From the NCBI GenBank assembly GCA_965224465.1, contig OZ245049.1, positions 5,190,001 through 5,222,000 on the forward strand: 32,000 nt of DNA. Reading direction: 5' to 3'. How positions within the stretch are numbered: position 1 is the first letter of the stretch; every line of letters starts with the position of its first letter. Below the pieces are notes generated by a model. That model was given only the letters and a program-made list of their open reading frames with translations, made no database searches and was not told the origin of the DNA. The translations under genes and the position numbers were made by a program. The DNA is from Flavobacteriaceae bacterium (GTDB lineage: Bacteria > Bacteroidota > Bacteroidia > Flavobacteriales > Flavobacteriaceae). Below, piece by piece: positions 4,096 to 29,718 of the stretch.

Positions 4096-4118
4096 GTTTA
4101 ATCCCACCAGTGGGTTTA
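4096..4118. repeat. 23-nt imperfect-palindrome motif gtttaatcccaccagtgggttta, copy 2
   Basis: Exact 23-nt identity with 2197-2219. It lies in the convergent spacer between the tlpA-like and aminotransferase genes. Confidence 0.85.
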
Positions 4119-4227: not shown

Positions 4228-5412
4228 TTACTTCAATTTTAAACTGTGAATTACCGAAAGAATTATTCCACATCCCTTTTCTATTTCTTGCATGCTTATG
4301 TTTAAAGGAGGGGTAATGCGAACAGCAGCGCCTTCAAAAAGAAGCCAAAAGAGGAACAAGCCTTCTTTCATAGATTTTAAGATGACTTGAGTGGCAATTT
4401 CGGGACTTTTAAATATAGGAGCGAGCATTAATCCTTGTCCTCGTATTTCTAAGATGGAAGGATGTTGCAATAGTTTTCTAATTAATTGCTCTTTTTTATC
4501 AATCTGTTCCATCAATTGCTCGTTGTACAAACTCTCCAATGTAGCCAATGCAGCTGCAGCAATTACCGGATGACCTCCAAAAGTAGTGATATGCCCTAAT
4601 TTGGGTGCAGTTTTTAGTAAACTCATCAATTTGTTGGAGGCAATAAATGCGCCAATCGGCATGCCACCTCCCAATCCTTTACCTGCAATTACAATATCTG
4701 GAACAATGTTGTAATGTTCAAATCCAAACAGCTTTCCTGTACGTCCAATGCCTGTTTGAATTTCATCTAAAATAAGTAAAGCACCAACCTGCTTACACCG
4801 AGCGCTTACTTTTTTTAAATAGTCATGCTTAGGAATAATAAATCCAGCACCTCCTTGAATGGTTTCTAGAATAACTGCTGCGGTATTGGTGGTTATTTTT
4901 TTTAATTCGTTTTCTGCATTGAAGCTAATAAATTTTATTCCTGGAATTAAGGGTCTAAATGCACGGTTTTGTTCTTCGGATCCACAGACACTCATAGCTC
5001 CTTGAGTATTTCCGTGATAAGAGTTGTGTGCGGCTATAATTTCATATCTTCCAGTAGCGCGTTTGGCTAATTTTAAGGCGCCTTCTGTTGCTTCTGTCCC
5101 CGAATTAGTCAGGTATGTGGTGTCTAGTGGAGCAGGGGAGTGCTCAGCTATAAATCGCGCTAATTTTACGGCAGGTTCCTGTACGAATTCTCCATACACC
5201 ATAACGTGCGTATATTTTGAAACTTGTGTAGTAATCGCAGCGCTTATTGCAGCATGGTTATGTCCCAACGTGTTTGCAGACACGCCTGCTATAAAGTCTA
5301 AATATGGTTTTTTGTCTGTATCATACACATAAGATCCCTTTGCATGGCTTATTTCCAAAGCCAATGGATGTTCGGATGTTTGTGCTTGGTATTTTAGGAA
5401 ATCTGCTTTCAA
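4228..5412 (-). CDS. class-III PLP-dependent aminotransferase (acetylornithine/ornithine aminotransferase-like)
   Basis: Motifs LTNSGTEATEGALKLA, LILDEIQTGIGRTGK and the PLP-lysine region IAGKGLGGG. The start is an apparent TTG one nt after the upstream gene's stop. Confidence 0.88.
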   Translation of the reverse strand: MKADFLKYQAQTSEHPLALEISHAKGSYVYDTDKKPYLDFIAGVSANTLGHNHAAISAAITTQVSKYTHVMVYGEFVQEPAVKLARFIAEHSPAPLDTTYLTNSGTEATEGALKLAKRATGRYEIIAAHNSYHGNTQGAMSVCGSEEQNRAFRPLIPGIKFISFNAENELKKITTNTAAVILETIQGGAGFIIPKHDYLKKVSARCKQVGALLILDEIQTGIGRTGKLFGFEHYNIVPDIVIAGKGLGGGMPIGAFIASNKLMSLLKTAPKLGHITTFGGHPVIAAAALATLESLYNEQLMEQIDKKEQLIRKLLQHPSILEIRGQGLMLAPIFKSPEIATQVILKSMKEGLFLFWLLFEGAAVRITPPLNISMQEIEKGCGIILSVIHSLKLK

Positions 5413-9008: not shown

Positions 9009-11237
9009 TTAAGTGTGTTTGTATATTCGGTCCACTTTTGTGACGCCTTCTATACGTTTTAGAATGGCAACAAGCTTGTCTAATTGTGTTTTGTTTTTGA
9101 TGCTGATAGTCACATTTCCTTCAAAAACACCATCGTTTCCAGAGATGCTTAAATTATGAATATTCACACTCATATTTCCGGAAATTACTTGTGATATCTG
9201 ACTCACCATTCCTACATGATCTATTCCGTGAATACTTAAAATCACTTTAAAGTCTTGCTTGGTAGAGTCGATCCATTTTGCAATCATTATCCTGTAGGCA
9301 AAATTTGCTTGTAGACTAATGGCATTTGGACAATCTTTTTTATGAATTTTGATACCATCATTAATGGTTACAAATCCAAATACGCGGTCTCCAGGGATCG
9401 GGTTGCAGCACATGGCTGGTTTGTAATCCAAGCGTTCTTCTTCTTTTCCAAAAACAAGTAAATCATATTTTTCAGTAATTTCAGGTTTGTTTAAATCTGG
9501 ATTTGGGATGCTTCGTTTCATCCTGTTTTTAAAGAAACTTACTATGGCATTATTTCTTGAAGCAATATATTGTTTCAATTGGTTGTTGTCAATAGATCCC
9601 AAACCAAATTGATAAAACAATTCAAAACTTGTTTTTAACTTAAAAAAGGTAACCAGTTCATTTACTGTTTTTTCATTCAAAGCAATTTTTAAATGCCTTA
9701 GTTTTCTGCCTAATGTTTCTTTTCCTAAATCGGCAATGGCTTTTTGATCTTCTTTTAATGCGGCTTTAATTCTCGCTCTTGCACGTGCAGTTACCACAAA
9801 ATCTAACCATCCTATATTGGGTTTTTGTGCTTTTGAAGTAATTATTTCTACTTGATCTCCGCTTCTTAAAATGTGGCTGATTGGTAATAATTTTCCGTTT
9901 ACTTTAGCACCTCTACACGTCATTCCTACCTGGGTATGAATAGAAAAAGCAAAGTCCAAGGCAGTGGCATCTTTTGGGATGGCTTTTAAATCACCATTGG
10001 GCGTAAATACAAATATTTCTTTTGCGTATAAATTCAATTTAAACGTCTCTACAAAATCCACAGCATTCACCTCTTGGTTTTCCAAGGTCTCTTTCAGCTT
10101 ATTTAGCCAAAGTTCCATGCCGCTTTCCTTCTCTGAATTGTGTTTGTAACGGTAATGTGCGGCATATCCTTTTTCGGCAATTTCGTTCATCCGTTGAGAT
10201 CTAATTTGGACTTCTACCCATTGCCCTTTAGAACCCATTACGGTAATGTGTAAGGCTTCGTATCCCGTGGTTTTAGGTTGGCTTATCCAGTCTCTCAATC
10301 GTACGGGATTTGGATGAAAGTGATTGGTGACAATGGAATATATTTTCCAAGCGTCGAACTTTTCGTTTTTAGAATTAGATTTATAAACAATTCTAATGGC
10401 AAATTTGTCGTAGACTTCTTCAAAGCCTACGCCTTGTGCTTGCATTTTTTTTCGAATTGAATAAATAGATTTTGAGCGTCCTTTTATATAGTAATCAAAG
10501 CCTTCTTCATCTAAAGAATTCTCTATCGTTTTTGAGAAATCACGAATGTAAATCTCTTGTTCTTCTTTACTGGCGGTTATTTTACCTAAGATATCGTTAT
10601 ATTCTTTAGGGTTTGTGTATTTGAGTCCTAAATCTTCTAGTTCTGTTTTTATATTGTAAAGGCCCAATCTATGTGCAAGTGGAGCATAGATATACAATGT
10701 TTCAGATGCAATTTTTATTTGTTTGTGAGGAGGCATTGCATCCATGGTTTGCATATTGTGCAAACGGTCTGCAATTTTAATCAGAATTACACGCACATCA
10801 TCGTTTAATGTCAAGAGCATTTTTCTGAAATTCTCTGCTTGTAAGGAGGCGTTTTGATCTTTTTTAAGATGTGATATTTTTGTTAGACCCGCCACAATAC
10901 GTGCTACCTTTTCTCCAAATAATTGTTCGATATCTTCGGATGTATAGGGAGTGTCTTCTACCACGTCATGTAGCAATGCACACACGATAGATGTTTTTCC
11001 GAGTCCAATTTCGTTGGCAACAATTTTAGCTACTGCTATGGGATGATATATATAAGGTTCACCTGTTTTTCTTCGTTGAGGAGCATGCGCCTCCAAGGCT
11101 AGATTAAACGCTTTTCGTATTAATTTTTTATCGTCTTTCGTAAAACTTTGATACGAGTCTTTTAATAAATCTTTATAACGCCTAGCTATTTCCTTGTTTT
11201 CCTCTTCTTCTTCTTTCGTCATTGAATTGCTCATCAT
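9009..11237 (-). CDS. bifunctional (p)ppGpp synthetase/hydrolase, RelA/SpoT family
   Basis: 742 aa. HD hydrolase motif (LLHDVVEDT), synthetase region (GRSKSIYSIRKKM ... YEALHITV), a TGS domain and a C-terminal ACT-like domain. Confidence 0.95.
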   Translation of the reverse strand: MMSNSMTKEEEEENKEIARRYKDLLKDSYQSFTKDDKKLIRKAFNLALEAHAPQRRKTGEPYIYHPIAVAKIVANEIGLGKTSIVCALLHDVVEDTPYTSEDIEQLFGEKVARIVAGLTKISHLKKDQNASLQAENFRKMLLTLNDDVRVILIKIADRLHNMQTMDAMPPHKQIKIASETLYIYAPLAHRLGLYNIKTELEDLGLKYTNPKEYNDILGKITASKEEQEIYIRDFSKTIENSLDEEGFDYYIKGRSKSIYSIRKKMQAQGVGFEEVYDKFAIRIVYKSNSKNEKFDAWKIYSIVTNHFHPNPVRLRDWISQPKTTGYEALHITVMGSKGQWVEVQIRSQRMNEIAEKGYAAHYRYKHNSEKESGMELWLNKLKETLENQEVNAVDFVETFKLNLYAKEIFVFTPNGDLKAIPKDATALDFAFSIHTQVGMTCRGAKVNGKLLPISHILRSGDQVEIITSKAQKPNIGWLDFVVTARARARIKAALKEDQKAIADLGKETLGRKLRHLKIALNEKTVNELVTFFKLKTSFELFYQFGLGSIDNNQLKQYIASRNNAIVSFFKNRMKRSIPNPDLNKPEITEKYDLLVFGKEEERLDYKPAMCCNPIPGDRVFGFVTINDGIKIHKKDCPNAISLQANFAYRIMIAKWIDSTKQDFKVILSIHGIDHVGMVSQISQVISGNMSVNIHNLSISGNDGVFEGNVTISIKNKTQLDKLVAILKRIEGVTKVDRIYKHT

Positions 11238-11574
11238 TAAATGTAATATTTATTACATGGAAAGCAAACTTTTCTAGTTCTTATTTTAATTTATTAATCC
11301 GCTCTCATAAAGTGGGGTGGGAATACATTATAAATACATACCATGGATGTGGAGTTAAGTTACTGAGGCTCTTTTTAGAAAGTATTTTAAGTGCAAGCAT
11401 TAATACGATGTTGGAATACGTGTTTTTAGCAAAGTTACCTGCTTGATATTCAGATTTTTTAAAGGTTAAATTCCTGATAATTTTAGTAAATATCGAAATT
11501 GGTGCGTATAAAAACACAAAAACGACCAATCTTATATGAAAACTTGCTGCTTTTAGTCCTAAAACATGTGAATA

Positions 11575-11624
11575 ATACCAAATACATTTTCAAGTGACGT
11601 TTAGAAATGGAATTATTTTTTATT
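11575..11624 (+). repeat. repeat family, 5' ~50-nt part (B1), separated from its 3' part by B2
   Basis: ataccaaatacattttcaagtgacgtttagaaatggaattatttttt matches the first third of copies A, D, E and F. Confidence 0.85.
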
Positions 11625-11699
11625 ATACCAAATTAAATTTCCAAGAGACGGTTTAAAAACAAACTATTTATATAGGTCATTTTGGATTTTAATTGATAT
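11625..11699 (+). mobile_element. 75-nt termini-only mini copy (B2) of the repeat family, apparently inserted into another copy
   Basis: It has both ends of the family (ataccaaattaaatttccaagagacggttta ... aaaacaaactatttatataggtcattttggattttaattgatat) but lacks the ~85-nt internal hairpin region. It is flanked by the two halves of a full copy. Confidence 0.7.
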
Positions 11700-11810
11700 T
11701 ATAGCTAGGCGAAAATCCTAAGGATAGCCTTAGCGATTGTTCTATTTTTCAGCAACGCTAGCACGTAAAACAACCTATTTATATCGCTTATTTTGGATTG
11801 TAATTGGTGT
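11700..11810 (+). repeat. repeat family, 3' ~110-nt part (B3)
   Basis: tatagctaggcgaaaatcctaaggatagccttagcg...cgcttattttggattgtaattggtgt aligns with the 3' two thirds of the full copies. Confidence 0.88.
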
Positions 11811-11842
11811 TAATAATAAGGCAATAACAGAACCTACTGCCA

Positions 11843-12304
11843 TTAGTTGTTTCTTAAAACTCTCCGTGCTTGTAAATAGTGTTTTTTCCAATACGGATTG
11901 TTTAGTTTTGTTTTGCTAACTCCAGAAGATGATGCGCTATGGATAAAAGAATTGTCTCCTACGTAAATTCCAACATGATAGTATTTTTTGGAGGGTTTAA
12001 AAAAAAGTAAGTCACCCAATTGATAGTTTTTTTTAGAGACCTTTTTTCCAATAGAAATTTGCTTGCGTGTAGTACGTGGTATTTTGATATTAAATGCTTC
12101 TTGATATACTTTTTGGACAAATCCAGAACAGTCAAATCCGTTACTGTTTGTGCCTCCATATCTATAAGGAGTGTGTTTGTATTTACTATAAATACGGACT
12201 AATTTTTCTTTTTTGGAAGATTTTCTAGGGGTATGAGTTGTTTTTTTTGCTCCGCAAGAGCTTAATATTAAGGTAAAGATAAAAAGAATAAAAAATTGTT
12301 TCAT
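11843..12304 (-). CDS. NlpC/P60 (C40) peptidoglycan hydrolase lipoprotein
   Basis: GFDCSGFVQKVY catalytic Cys motif, HVGIYVG and FIHAS. I moved the start to the ATG at 12304, giving MKQFFILFIFTLILSSCG with signal peptide and lipobox. The longer track ORF overlaps trmH. Confidence 0.88.
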   Translation of the reverse strand: MKQFFILFIFTLILSSCGAKKTTHTPRKSSKKEKLVRIYSKYKHTPYRYGGTNSNGFDCSGFVQKVYQEAFNIKIPRTTRKQISIGKKVSKKNYQLGDLLFFKPSKKYYHVGIYVGDNSFIHSASSSGVSKTKLNNPYWKKHYLQARRVLRNN

Positions 12305-13141: not shown

Positions 13142-14242
13142 TTACTTTGACTCTTTTTTTTTCATCATTAATTCTTCTGGTTTCTGAGCGTAATAATTAA
13201 TAAGAAGTAACACCATTTTGTTGTAACTTTTAATGCCATCTTTTTGTTTGTTTGATTTCAAAAATAAGTGATATCCTTTCTTTACATAGGGTTCAAAGGG
13301 GTTTTTATACTGCATTCGTAACGTGTAGTATGCTTGAAGATCCTTTTTGACTCCCTTATTTAATTGTTTAAATAGTTTTTTGAAAACAATGCTATCTCGC
13401 TTACGGAATTCATAAACACTGTGTAGCATAGCGTTTTTGTATCCAGAATATTGAAAAAAGATATCGGAATGTTGTGTAGATGCTAGAAAACCAATAAATT
13501 CTGCTTCGTTTTCTGCGGCATATCCTATCTGATGTGCCATTTCATGACTGATAGTGCTCGGAGCATTGCTGAGAAGTCCGTTTGTGTTAATATGTGCTTC
13601 TCCCGTTAAGGGGTTTAAGTAGCCGCCAACACCTATATAGCTTTGAAAAGTACTCATTAACGAACTTTTTATGGAAGGGGTTTTATAGCTTAAGAATGGG
13701 TATAGGTCTTTTAGTTTTTCATATCCTTTAGGTGCTAAGAGGTACATTTCCTTGTAGTTGTACGGGATTTTTACCTGGATGCTGTCTGTGCCCATCAAGT
13801 TTAATTGTAGTGCATTTGTTCTTTTGATTAGGTAGGTAGCTACTGTTTCTAATTGGTCATTGGAATATTCCTCTATGGTGAAATTTAGTTTTTCAGACAA
13901 TGGAAGTCTGAAATAGTTGAGCCCCCAGTTAAAATAAAAGAAAAAAAGTAAGACAGATAACCATGATAAAAGAAGCGTGGCTGTTTTTTGAAGGGTTATT
14001 TTCTTTTTTATCAGTCGAAACAATGTCCTGATAAAAAGTCCAATTAGGGTGAATAAAAATAGGTCTCCCACAGAAAAAGGTATCCATCCTGTTAAAGTTC
14101 TCCAAAATTGAGCAATATAAGGATACATTCCATGGGCGTAATACAATTCTATAAATTGTGGAAAACACCCGATTATACGTATAAAAATAAGCTGTATAAA
14201 TAGGAAAAAGAGTAGGTACCTTTGTGTCTTAAATTTTCTCAT
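13142..14242 (-). CDS. DUF3810-family membrane protein with an HExxH metalloprotease-like motif
   Basis: N-terminal TM helices and a SHEMAHQIGY (HExxH) motif. The start is set to the ATG at 14242; the track start at 14248 is a TTG two codons upstream. Confidence 0.75.
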   Translation of the reverse strand: MRKFKTQRYLLFFLFIQLIFIRIIGCFPQFIELYYAHGMYPYIAQFWRTLTGWIPFSVGDLFLFTLIGLFIRTLFRLIKKKITLQKTATLLLSWLSVLLFFFYFNWGLNYFRLPLSEKLNFTIEEYSNDQLETVATYLIKRTNALQLNLMGTDSIQVKIPYNYKEMYLLAPKGYEKLKDLYPFLSYKTPSIKSSLMSTFQSYIGVGGYLNPLTGEAHINTNGLLSNAPSTISHEMAHQIGYAAENEAEFIGFLASTQHSDIFFQYSGYKNAMLHSVYEFRKRDSIVFKKLFKQLNKGVKKDLQAYYTLRMQYKNPFEPYVKKGYHLFLKSNKQKDGIKSYNKMVLLLINYYAQKPEELMMKKKESK

Positions 14243-14438
14243 GTTCAAAAATACTGATTAAAACAAAACGATTCGCGTTGAATTTAAAATATTATTGAGA
14301 ATTATGAATCGTTAAGATATTTATTCGAGTTCATACAATACACCGTTTTTTGATTCGTCAGAAGACCATGCTATTATTGTTAAAAAATCCTGTTCCAAAT
14401 AGGGGTGAGGTATACGTTCAATTCATTAAATTTTAGCT

Positions 14439-14446
14439 TATATTTG
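14439..14446 (+). promoter_or_regulatory. Bacteroidetes-type -7 box (TAtaTTTG) upstream of aroQ
   Basis: Exact TAnnTTTG match, 40 nt upstream of the ATG at 14486. Confidence 0.4.
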
Positions 14447-14485
14447 AAATCGAAAGTGCTATTGCTTTCTATTTTTTATTTTTTT

Positions 14486-14899
14486 ATGAAACTACTCATC
14501 CTAAATGGTCCAAATCTAAATTTACTAGGGAAACGTGAACCAGAAATATACGGTTCAGATACCTTTGAAGACTATTATAAAAAATTACAGGAGAAATTCT
14601 CTAAGATTGATTTTGAATACTACCAATCCAATATAGAAGGAGAATTGATTGATAAAATACATGAAGTAGGTTTTATCTATGATGGTATTGTGTTAAATGC
14701 GGGGGCTTATACACATACGTCAATTGCTATTGGAGATGCCATTAAGGGAATAGCGTGTCCTGTAATAGAAGTGCATATTTCAAATGTACATGCAAGAGAA
14801 TCCTTTAGACATACGTCTTATATCGCACCCAATGCAAAGGGAGTTATTTCTGGATTTGGAATGAAAAGTTATGCCTTGGCAGTGGAAAGTTTTTTATAA
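14486..14899 (+). CDS. aroQ: type II 3-dehydroquinate dehydratase
   Basis: MKLLILNGPNLNLLGKREPEIYG N-terminus, with NAGAYTHTSIA and EVHISN motifs. The 27-codon upstream extension in the track (GTG at 14405) is not family-like. Confidence 0.93.
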   Translation: MKLLILNGPNLNLLGKREPEIYGSDTFEDYYKKLQEKFSKIDFEYYQSNIEGELIDKIHEVGFIYDGIVLNAGAYTHTSIAIGDAIKGIACPVIEVHISNVHARESFRHTSYIAPNAKGVISGFGMKSYALAVESFL

Positions 14900-14940: not shown

Positions 14941-15050
14941 TTTATAGCTAGGCGGAAAATCTAAGGATACCCTTAGCTATCGTTCTGTTTTTCAATAACG
15001 ATAGAACGTAAAATAAACTATTTATATCGGTCATTTTGGATTGTAATTGA
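14941..15050 (+). repeat. repeat family, 5'-truncated copy C (3' ~110 nt only)
   Basis: tttatagctaggcggaaaatctaaggatacccttagctatcgttctg...aaactatttatatcggtcattttggattgtaattga. It starts at the same internal point as B3. Confidence 0.88.
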
Positions 15051-15351
15051 ATTGTTCGATGCGCTATCTAGAGATAGAAAATAGTTTTTCGGAAGCATAT
15101 CTCGTATCCTTGGTGCGAGGCGGTTGTTTTTTGTTTTGTAATTCTTTTTTGATTCCTGACTTTTACAAGGGATAAACGGTTGGTCTAAGTTCAAATTATA
15201 CTCCTTTCCAGTAATCTATAACGCTATTTTTAAGTCGTAAATCAACATTTAAAGCATTCAGTTTTTTTGTATTTACTAAAGATAGGTTCATTTTTAGAAT
15301 CACTAACATTAACGAGTGGAGGGCTGTTTTAAGCTTTTTAAAATCGTATTT

Positions 15352-15512
15352 ATATCAAAAAAAATTCCAAGTGACGGTTTAGAAATGGAATTATCTTTTG
15401 TTTTATCTAAGCGATAAAGGGAAGGATAGCCTTAGCTATCGTTTTGTTTTTTAACAATGCCAGAACGTAAAATAAACTATGTATATCGGTTATTTTGGAT
15501 TGTAATTGGTAT
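15352..15512 (+). repeat. repeat family, full copy D
   Basis: atatcaaaaaaaattccaagtgacggtttagaaatggaattatc...tatatcggttattttggattgtaattggtat. In the family the outermost ATACCAA/TTGGTAT are exact inverted repeats (exact in E); D has one mismatch in the 5' arm (atatcaa). Confidence 0.9.
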
Positions 15513-15857
15513 TGTTGTGTCGGAAGAACATACTTGTAGCTTTAGAAAATTGCAAAGACTTATTGTAAACAGCTGCTAAAATGATATTTTTTTAGACCTG
15601 CCTGAGAGTGATCTGTTTTTTAGCAATGTATTTGTTTGCATCTACCATTTAAAGGAAAGCGTTCTTTTTTTTTGAAATCGTTTGTTTAGAATTTTAATAC
15701 ATCAAAAATGACGCGATTATTTTACAAATAATTAAAGATCTTAAGTGAATTAGAAGTGCTAAAATTAAGTGCCTACAACATTGGTGGTAGGACGATTTGT
15801 TTTTATAGTAAAAGGATTAAAAAAACAGTATTTTTTATGTAAACACGTATAAAACAG

Positions 15858-22380: not shown

Positions 22381-22529
22381 ATACCAAATAAATTTCCAAG
22401 TGACAGTGTAGAAATGGAATTGTTTTTTGTTTTAGCTAGGCGGAAAACCATAGCTGTCGTTCTGTTTTTTAACAACGCTAGAGCGTAAAACAAACTATTT
22501 ATATTGGTCCTTTTAGACTGTATTGGTAT
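22381..22529 (+). repeat. repeat family, full copy E (short internal deletion, 3' arm more diverged)
   Basis: ataccaaataaatttccaagtgacagtgtagaaatggaattg...gttctgttttttaacaacgctagagcgtaaaacaaactatttata...ctgtattggtat. It starts 18 nt after the pssA stop codon. Confidence 0.88.
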
Positions 22530-22586
22530 AAGAACGCTGCATTAAAAATCGAGGGGTTTTTATAAAAAAGTATTGAGATTTTATAT

Positions 22587-29311: not shown

Positions 29312-29472
29312 ATACCAAATACATTTCTAAGTGACGGTTTATAAATGGAATTATTTTTTGTTTTAGCTAGGCGAAAAATGGATGGATAGTCTTAGCTAGT
29401 ATTCTGTTTTTTAACAACGCTAGAACGTAAATTAAACTATTTATATCGGTTATTTTGAGTTTTAATTGGTGT
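29312..29472 (+). repeat. repeat family, full copy F
   Basis: ataccaaatacatttctaagtgacggtttataaatggaattattttttgttttagctaggcgaaaaatggatgg...aaactatttatatcggttattttgagttttaattggtgt. Confidence 0.9.
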
Positions 29473-29718
29473 TAATCCCTTATTGAGTGAGGGTATTTCC
29501 TGGAGTTATGGGGCTAAATGGAAACGAGTCTTTTGAAAGTGTATCTCCTGCCTTGGGGAGAGGCTGTTGATAGGTGTTGAATTGATTTTATGAGATGAAT
29601 GCTAGATATATCAGTTTTAAAATTCAAATTATTTTCACAAAATAAACAGTCAGTTTGGTGTGTAAACCGCTAAAAAAAGAATGGTTTTATGCTGTTTGTT
29701 GACCTTTGTAGAAATATG

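Follow-up and report, generated by a model that had tools for sequence, protein, structure and literature searches.

How did three pieces of one short repeat come to lie end to end at positions 11575-11811 of a 32,000-nt stretch of DNA (hereafter the window, meaning the whole stretch that was analysed) from a Lutibacter-like member of the Flavobacteriaceae (AroQ 100% identical to P0123)? The initial annotation had proposed that a miniature copy, carrying both termini and no core, inserted into a resident full-length copy. Overall, the best and most economical reading of this locus, with a probability of about 0.72, is that an internally deleted MITE inserted into a full-length copy, although this is not proven. 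Nesting is favoured because the two outer pieces meet at one position of the element, and because the insert has canonical termini in the right order and orientation.

A dispersed MITE-type repeat in the window

The window, with a G+C content of 34%, contains a dispersed repeat of about 162 nt. A 28-nt pattern from the right end of this repeat matches the window seven times, whereas shuffled sequences gave an expectation of 0.00. Repeat finding and a profile search delimited full-length copies at 2219-2380 (between a Crp-like and an RskA-like gene), 15352-15513 and 29312-29473, as well as a copy with an 11-nt internal deletion at 22381-22531. Profile and alignment added a 5'-truncated copy at 14943-15054 (model positions ~52-157), which starts 44 nt after the aroQ stop codon. 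Every one of the seven units lies on the + strand. The pairwise identity among copies ranges from 78 to 87%, and the copies in this genome resemble one another no more closely than they resemble copies in other genomes. The copies are dispersed, with unrelated flanks. The GC skew of the + strand is positive over most of the window, and five of the six loci lie just downstream of a + strand gene; the copies L001, L002 and L007, from outside the window, are also co-oriented with the upstream gene.

The two arms of the repeat are inverted repeats, identical at 12 of the 13 outermost nucleotides, at ~20 of 26, and at ~70% over 75 nt. The family ends read ATACCAAATACA...TGTAATTGGTAT, where the outermost ~26 nt consist of ATACCAAATACATTTCCAAGTGACGG and its partner. 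Over nearly its whole length the repeat is an imperfect palindrome, and single copies as well as the seven-copy consensus are predicted to fold as one long hairpin. In that consensus, a compensatory change was present in only one of the 51 pairs, and the covariation term was unfavourable. Given this near-absence of covariation, the palindrome resembles a binding sequence present twice and not a selected RNA structure. The window had no Rfam family match at gathering thresholds, and for this reason and because of the single compensatory pair a structured RNA was rejected. An internal terminator or promoter was likewise rejected, as the central stem-loops differ among copies and consensus scans gave results at or below the shuffle expectation.

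Stop codons in all six frames leave the repeat without coding capacity. Besides the full form of 162 nt, derivatives of 151, ~108 and 75 nt exist. No transposase is encoded in the window, and the 198 kb searched contained neither an autonomous element nor extra ends of the family. The repeat is of the MITE type: it is small and noncoding, it has terminal inverted repeats, its copies are dispersed, and it is present or absent at orthologous sites. It is a new, rare family of a well-known kind.

Anatomy of the nested composite

We searched the composite with a profile built from five full copies, from which the 75-nt miniature copy (the mini) was excluded. The left outer piece, at 11575-11624, comprises ~50 nt with the terminal inverted repeat and the left arm (nhmmer, 11575-11628 matching model positions 1-55, E = 7.8e-11). 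The right outer piece, at 11700-11811, comprises ~112 nt with the central region, the right arm and the terminus (11698-11809 matching model positions 49-160, E = 5.8e-31). Between them, nhmmer and alignment place the mini at 11625-11699, where a left terminus of 31 nt (11626-11658 matching model positions 2-33, E = 0.0088) is joined straight to a right terminus of 44 nt (11656-11696 matching model positions 118-158, E = 1e-4), so that model positions ~32-117 are missing. All three pieces are on the + strand, and the mini therefore has the same orientation as its host copy. If the ends are read as TACC...GATA, the mini proper is 11626-11698. On its own, the 75-nt unit is predicted to fold as a hairpin.

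When 11625-11699 is removed from 11575-11811, the remaining 162 nt align end to end with the copies at 2219, 15352, 22381 and 29312, and the outer pieces abut at one element position within 0-3 nt. The profile matches and this colinearity bear out the earlier view that 11575-11624 and 11700-11810 form one full copy. The termini-only copy of 31 + 44 nt had also been delimited accurately, as judged by a profile to which it did not contribute.

The mini is 86% identical to the outer copy, compared with 89-91% to L001, L003 and L002 in other genomes. Its left end, ATTAAATTTCC, is of a subtype found also in L003 and in the peptide P0122. Because the mini is closer to these other-genome copies than to its host, it is, judging from sequence similarity, an independent lineage of a different subtype from the host copy, and a local tandem duplication as its origin was rejected.

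Ends and target duplication

The ends ATACC...GGTRT are conserved in all copies. With the ends read as TACC...GGTA, the three nucleotides to the left and right are TAA/TAA for the copy at 22381; TTA/TTA for the copy at 29312, for L003 and for the mini; TTA/TTG for the copy at 15352; CAA/TAA for L001; and TAA/TTA for the outer copy. Exact TWA/TWA flanks were thus found in four of the seven copies. At the middle base, the two flanks agree in each of the six copies that do not lie at the deletion junction, but the signal is not statistically significant (permutation p 0.07-0.14). Counted by end, TWA flanks eight of nine left ends and eight of ten right ends. For the mini, the candidate 3-bp target duplication is tentatively placed on the + strand at 11623-11625 (TTA, within the 6-nt direct repeat ATTATA at 11622-11627) and at 11699-11701 (TTA, within ATTATA at 11698-11703).

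The nested site can also be examined for the host sequence that each reading of the ends leaves behind. Removal of 76 nt, that is, a 73-nt element and one TTA, leaves TTTTTTATTATAGCTAGG, which matches the family consensus TTTTTTGTTTTAGCTAGG in length. Removal of 75 nt, with no duplication, leaves a 19-nt version, and the other copies have 18-19 nt. On the other hand, CCAA...TTGG ends with a TA duplication leave a 23-nt host version, 4-5 nt longer than in any other copy. The IS630/Tc1-mariner-type TA target that the initial annotation had entertained with these ends is therefore disfavoured, both by this excess length and by the conservation of ATA and TAT in the termini. On these lengths, a duplication of 0-3 nt fits the nested case. 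As for the flanks, they agree better with a 3-bp TWA duplication than with the IS630-type TA, though weakly so. A duplication of this length would suggest IS5/PIF-Harbinger-like or other 3-bp-duplicating transposases. Since the flanks of the outer copy are mismatched (TAA versus TTA), this copy would most simply be a recombinant or an adjacent-deletion product.

The composite replaces most of a Peptidase_M48 gene

The region that holds the composite had been described as a spacer between relA/spoT and nlpC. Actually, it is a destroyed gene. Next to the RelA/SpoT gene (9009-11234, - strand, Pfam; 741 aa, identical to P0245), we found a C-terminal remnant of Peptidase_M48 at 11278-11565 on the - strand, which covers residues ~317-411 of 413 (tblastn match over 11562-11278, 65-69% identity, E 1e-33), contains in translation a premature stop at 11305-11307, and adjoins the left end of the composite. 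Adjoining the right end are the first ~10 codons of the same gene (MAVGSVIALLL; 11812-11842, - strand), recognised by comparison with L010 and L008. The NlpC/P60 gene comes next (11843-12304, - strand; Pfam PF00877, E 9.7e-36; start inferred from orthologues), and the M48 start overlaps the nlpC stop in the window, the same as in relatives. About 915 nt of M48 are missing, and the composite at 11575-11811 fills exactly that gap. What had been taken for a spacer is a pseudogene of Peptidase_M48, whose destruction is associated with the repeat.

For comparison, we used three sets of relatives whose RelA is ~90% identical to that of the window. Their gene order is SpoU, NlpC/P60, Peptidase_M48 (413 aa), RelA, Fur and PurA. 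An intact 413-aa M48 is present in L008/L009 (JGI), L010/L011 (Logan) and L014-L017 (North Pond scaffolds and Logan). No element copies were found in the 15-22 kb syntenic loci L008-L011 and L014-L015 of the three sets. The initial annotation had suggested a comparison with the orthologous spacer in relatives, and this comparison returned loci without a copy and with M48 intact; a pre-insertion (empty) version of the outer copy was not recovered among the sequences compared.

A second locus is informative in the same way. The spacer between the Crp and RskA genes, which holds the copy at 2219, is short and unoccupied in L010 and L014. The right flank of this copy aligns with both relatives, and the left flank has ~100 nt of other, lineage-specific hairpin repeats. 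A base-exact empty site was not obtained against L010 and L014, whose flanks are too diverged. Taken together, the M48 locus and this spacer show that copies were gained in this lineage, and no better evidence for mobility is available. The absence of copies from the relatives' syntenic DNA, together with the disruption of M48, lends independent support to the mobility of the family, to which the initial annotation took the nesting to point.

The gene order of the window matches that of the relatives from aconitase to DUF3810 and breaks at 14249-14485, between DUF3810 (13142-14248) and aroQ (14486-14899). Upstream of DUF3810, the relatives have an EF-G-like GTPase (L008/L009) or small ORFs after an MFS transporter (L014/L015).

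A truncated copy after aroQ

The truncated copy at 14943-15054 begins with ...GGATT followed by TATAGCTAGG, at most 5 nt from the element position of the nesting point. This copy and the outer right part both read TTA before TAGCTAGG, whereas the intact copies read TTT before TAGCTAGG. It is also present in L012, a 923-nt Logan contig (864-923; 97.4% identical); reads of a 97% relative are contained in SRR24204450 and SRR24204447. Between L012 and the window, the truncated copy differs at 6 of 58 nt, and the sequence beyond the element at 18 of 863 nt. No similarity to the element was seen in the 43 nt that precede the truncated copy, which is hence a plain truncation and not a second composite. 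Because it starts within 5 nt of the nesting point, element position ~50 may be a hot spot for insertion or breakage.

This copy also bears on the counter-scenario named in the initial annotation, namely that the ~50-nt and ~110-nt parts commonly occur as separate modules while the mini occurs nowhere else. The ~110-nt right part does occur alone once, at 14943-15054 and again in L012, and no other mini was found; a left end alone was not seen.

In L013 (5415-5675; North Pond, AroQ 87% identical), the region downstream of aroQ has no element. It contains short repeats resembling GTTATAAGTGTTAAGCTGTAG and, at the contig end, a CTCTATT tandem array.

Distribution outside the window

A scan with the right-end pattern returned five loci in GTDB representative genomes, two in JGI metagenomes and none in viral contigs, and plasmids gave no blastn match to a full copy. 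Full copies are present in the North Pond MAGs NORP150 and NORP167 (L001, L003 and the variant L002), and solo right ends in L005 and L007. L004 and L006 were set aside, as they look like chance matches inside other sequence. Right ends without a left end made up 3 of 12, and left ends alone were not seen. There was no second 75-nt copy in 198 kb, nor among the seven loci matched by the right-end pattern in genomes and metagenomes.

In L002 (4786-4959, - strand) and L005 (~4636-4700, - strand), both from NORP167, and in L007 (~2134-2194, + strand) on a JGI metagenome contig, the ~40-nt right terminus is preceded by another sub-terminal module, TGTRCYCAACYYGATTKG. This module may represent an extended right end of a putative parent element.

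A protein search with a profile of the element's longest open frame returned only P0121 and P0122, both encoded in the source genome, on the 5.24-Mb contig that carries the window but outside the window itself. In P0122, the right arm ...LLKN is joined straight to the left arm NSISKPSLGN..., which makes it an internal-deletion derivative of ~108 nt; its left-end subtype AATTAAATTTCC is common to the mini and L003. In P0121, a right end continues into unrelated sequence. When the ORF over the copy at 22381 was used to scan 1.84 billion representatives with HMMER, the only hit was one unrelated tandem-repeat protein.

Overall, the family was found only in the source genome, in one 97% relative (one sequencing run) and in North Pond subseafloor Flavobacteriaceae MAGs, and it appears to be rare in public data. 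Short-read assemblies of relatives break inside copies (L012 ends inside one), and such breaks matter when organisms of this kind are binned. In the literature we found no description of this family, only general work on prokaryotic MITEs and on nested IS/MITEs. Nested 'Russian doll' copies of IS and MITEs have been mentioned for prokaryotes, where nesting is well recognised in IS/MITE annotation (PMC3852290).

Nested insertion and its alternatives

Under the nested-insertion reading, the repeat would be a non-autonomous foldback MITE of ~162 nt, whose outermost ~26 nt are presumably bound by a transposase encoded elsewhere. Internal deletions would have given the shorter derivatives of 151, ~108 and 75 nt, and the 75-nt derivative, which retains 31 nt from the left end and 44 nt from the right end, would still have been mobilised. 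It would then have inserted into a T-rich tract at position ~50 of a resident full copy, possibly at a duplicated TTA. Such nesting is ordinary for repeats of this kind. Before this insertion, the uninterrupted outer copy would have read ...GGAATTATTTTTTATT joined directly to TATAGCTAGG... The outer copy, in turn, may have come to lie at the ~915-nt deletion junction through recombination of two same-orientation copies in M48, or through an element-mediated adjacent deletion. The anatomy, the presence and absence among relatives, the disrupted gene and the deletion derivatives are observations; from them we infer the dependence on a transposase, the order of events and the TWA duplication. The nesting proposed in the initial annotation is thus upheld by the anatomy, the two termini, the different subtype of the mini and the ~108-nt derivative; neither a pre-insertion state nor a second 75-nt copy was found in the sequences covered.

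We consider it unlikely that the composite arose by local rearrangement of a modular repeat. In that case, position ~50 would be a hot spot of recombination or breakage, and three pieces would have been joined there (part of the left side, a unit consisting of ends only, and a unit truncated at its 5' end, like the aroQ-side copy), for example in the event that deleted 915 nt of M48, and the end-only element would never have transposed. A large deletion clearly occurred at the locus, and a free 5'-truncated unit that starts at most 5 nt from the nesting point shares TTA before TAGCTAGG with the outer right part. The solo right ends L005 and L007 and the substituted sub-terminal module of L002 indicate that parts of the family recombine, and the failure to find another 75-nt copy in the 198 kb and at the seven pattern loci is in line with an end-only unit that never moved. 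Nevertheless, independent breaks do not predict that the left fragment ends where the right fragment starts, within 0-3 nt. The inserted unit, moreover, has canonical family termini at both sides, and the 43 nt without element similarity 5' of the aroQ-side copy suggest a simple truncation there.

Structured host elements offer a different explanation. REP/BIME-like sequences, terminator or RNA hairpins, or hairpins moved by a Y1 transposase could spread by recombination or as single strands and nest as directed by their structure, with no DDE cut-and-paste. The single orientation of the seven units along a strand of positive GC skew would suit such an origin, as would the position of most copies just downstream of, and co-oriented with, a gene, and the predicted hairpin fold of the whole element. 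The orientation sample, however, amounts to only six independent loci. In addition, the termini are well-conserved inverted repeats, the single covarying pair among 51 and the unfavourable covariation term argue against a selected structure, no Rfam family matches, and the internal stem-loops differ among copies. We therefore regard this origin as highly improbable.

An assembly artefact, in which reads of different copies were mis-joined, is barely credible: short-read assemblies of relatives do break in such repeats, as L012 does, but the window lies on a single 5.24-Mb contig, and the three pieces differ from every other copy seen and meet at clean junctions.

If the nested-insertion reading is correct, the mini is a natural deletion experiment, which would show that 31 nt from the left end together with 44 nt from the right end suffice for movement. 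The binding sites of the transposase, and the partner IS, could then be sought in a narrower range of sequence. A more speculative extension, which we take as a long shot, is that the family preferentially enters other copies of itself at a fixed internal point, the T-rich tract at ~50 in the foldback stem, and that it may also insert in only one orientation with respect to replication or transcription. Target choice would then depend on structure or on single strands, which is atypical of inverted-repeat MITEs, and the truncated aroQ-side copy and the nested copy would be two outcomes of one process. The most useful new fact is that the repeat marks the loss of an HtpX-like M48 gene, which lies directly upstream of relA in every relative examined. 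This loss may have altered relA transcription.

Comparison with known systems

Correia/NEMIS elements of Neisseria are MITEs of ~100-160 nt with long and short forms, ~26-nt terminal inverted repeats and a TA duplication. They are noncoding and mostly intergenic, their short forms arise by internal deletion, and they can disrupt or modulate neighbouring genes. Our family resembles them in size, in its ~26-nt inverted repeats, in being noncoding and mostly intergenic, and in its shorter internal-deletion forms. By contrast, there is no sequence relation, the host is a marine member of the Flavobacteriaceae, a TWA duplication or none fits better than TA, and the palindrome extends along almost the entire repeat.

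Tourist-like MITEs of the PIF/Harbinger-IS5 superfamily make a 3-bp TWA (TTA/TAA) duplication in AT-rich targets, and nested insertions are known in plants. Our family would share with them the self-nesting, the insertion into an AT-rich tract and the candidate TWA duplication (weak, p 0.07-0.14). However, neither an IS5-type transposase nor matching IS ends were found in the window or the 198 kb, and we do not claim membership. With the MITEs of IS630/Tc1-mariner, the family shares a TA beside CCAA...TTGG in most copies, but in every copy that TA is also preceded by a conserved A and followed by a conserved T, which makes ATA/TAT look element-internal.

The IS200/IS605 hairpin elements and REP/RAYT systems have no terminal inverted repeats and no duplication; they have sub-terminal hairpins and insert with strand bias. 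Our family differs in its clear terminal inverted repeats, and its own strand bias, seven of seven units on the + strand, comes from only six loci. ERIC/IRU and REP/BIME sequences are imperfect palindromes of ~125-160 nt in transcribed intergenic regions, with size variants due to indels at fixed positions, orientation effects and little evidence of recent movement. The palindrome, the similar size, the size variants and the orientation effects recur here. Unlike those sequences, our family shows presence and absence between related genomes, and one copy destroyed a gene.

Other small hairpin repeats are also present in the window. They include an exact 22-nt repeat, TTTAATCCCACCAGTGGGTTT, at 2198-2218 and 4097-4117, and a CCCTTATTGAG motif at 2185 and 29477. 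The small repeats at 2185-2218 and 29477 adjoin copies of the main element, and the genome seems to be rich in short GC-stem repeats.
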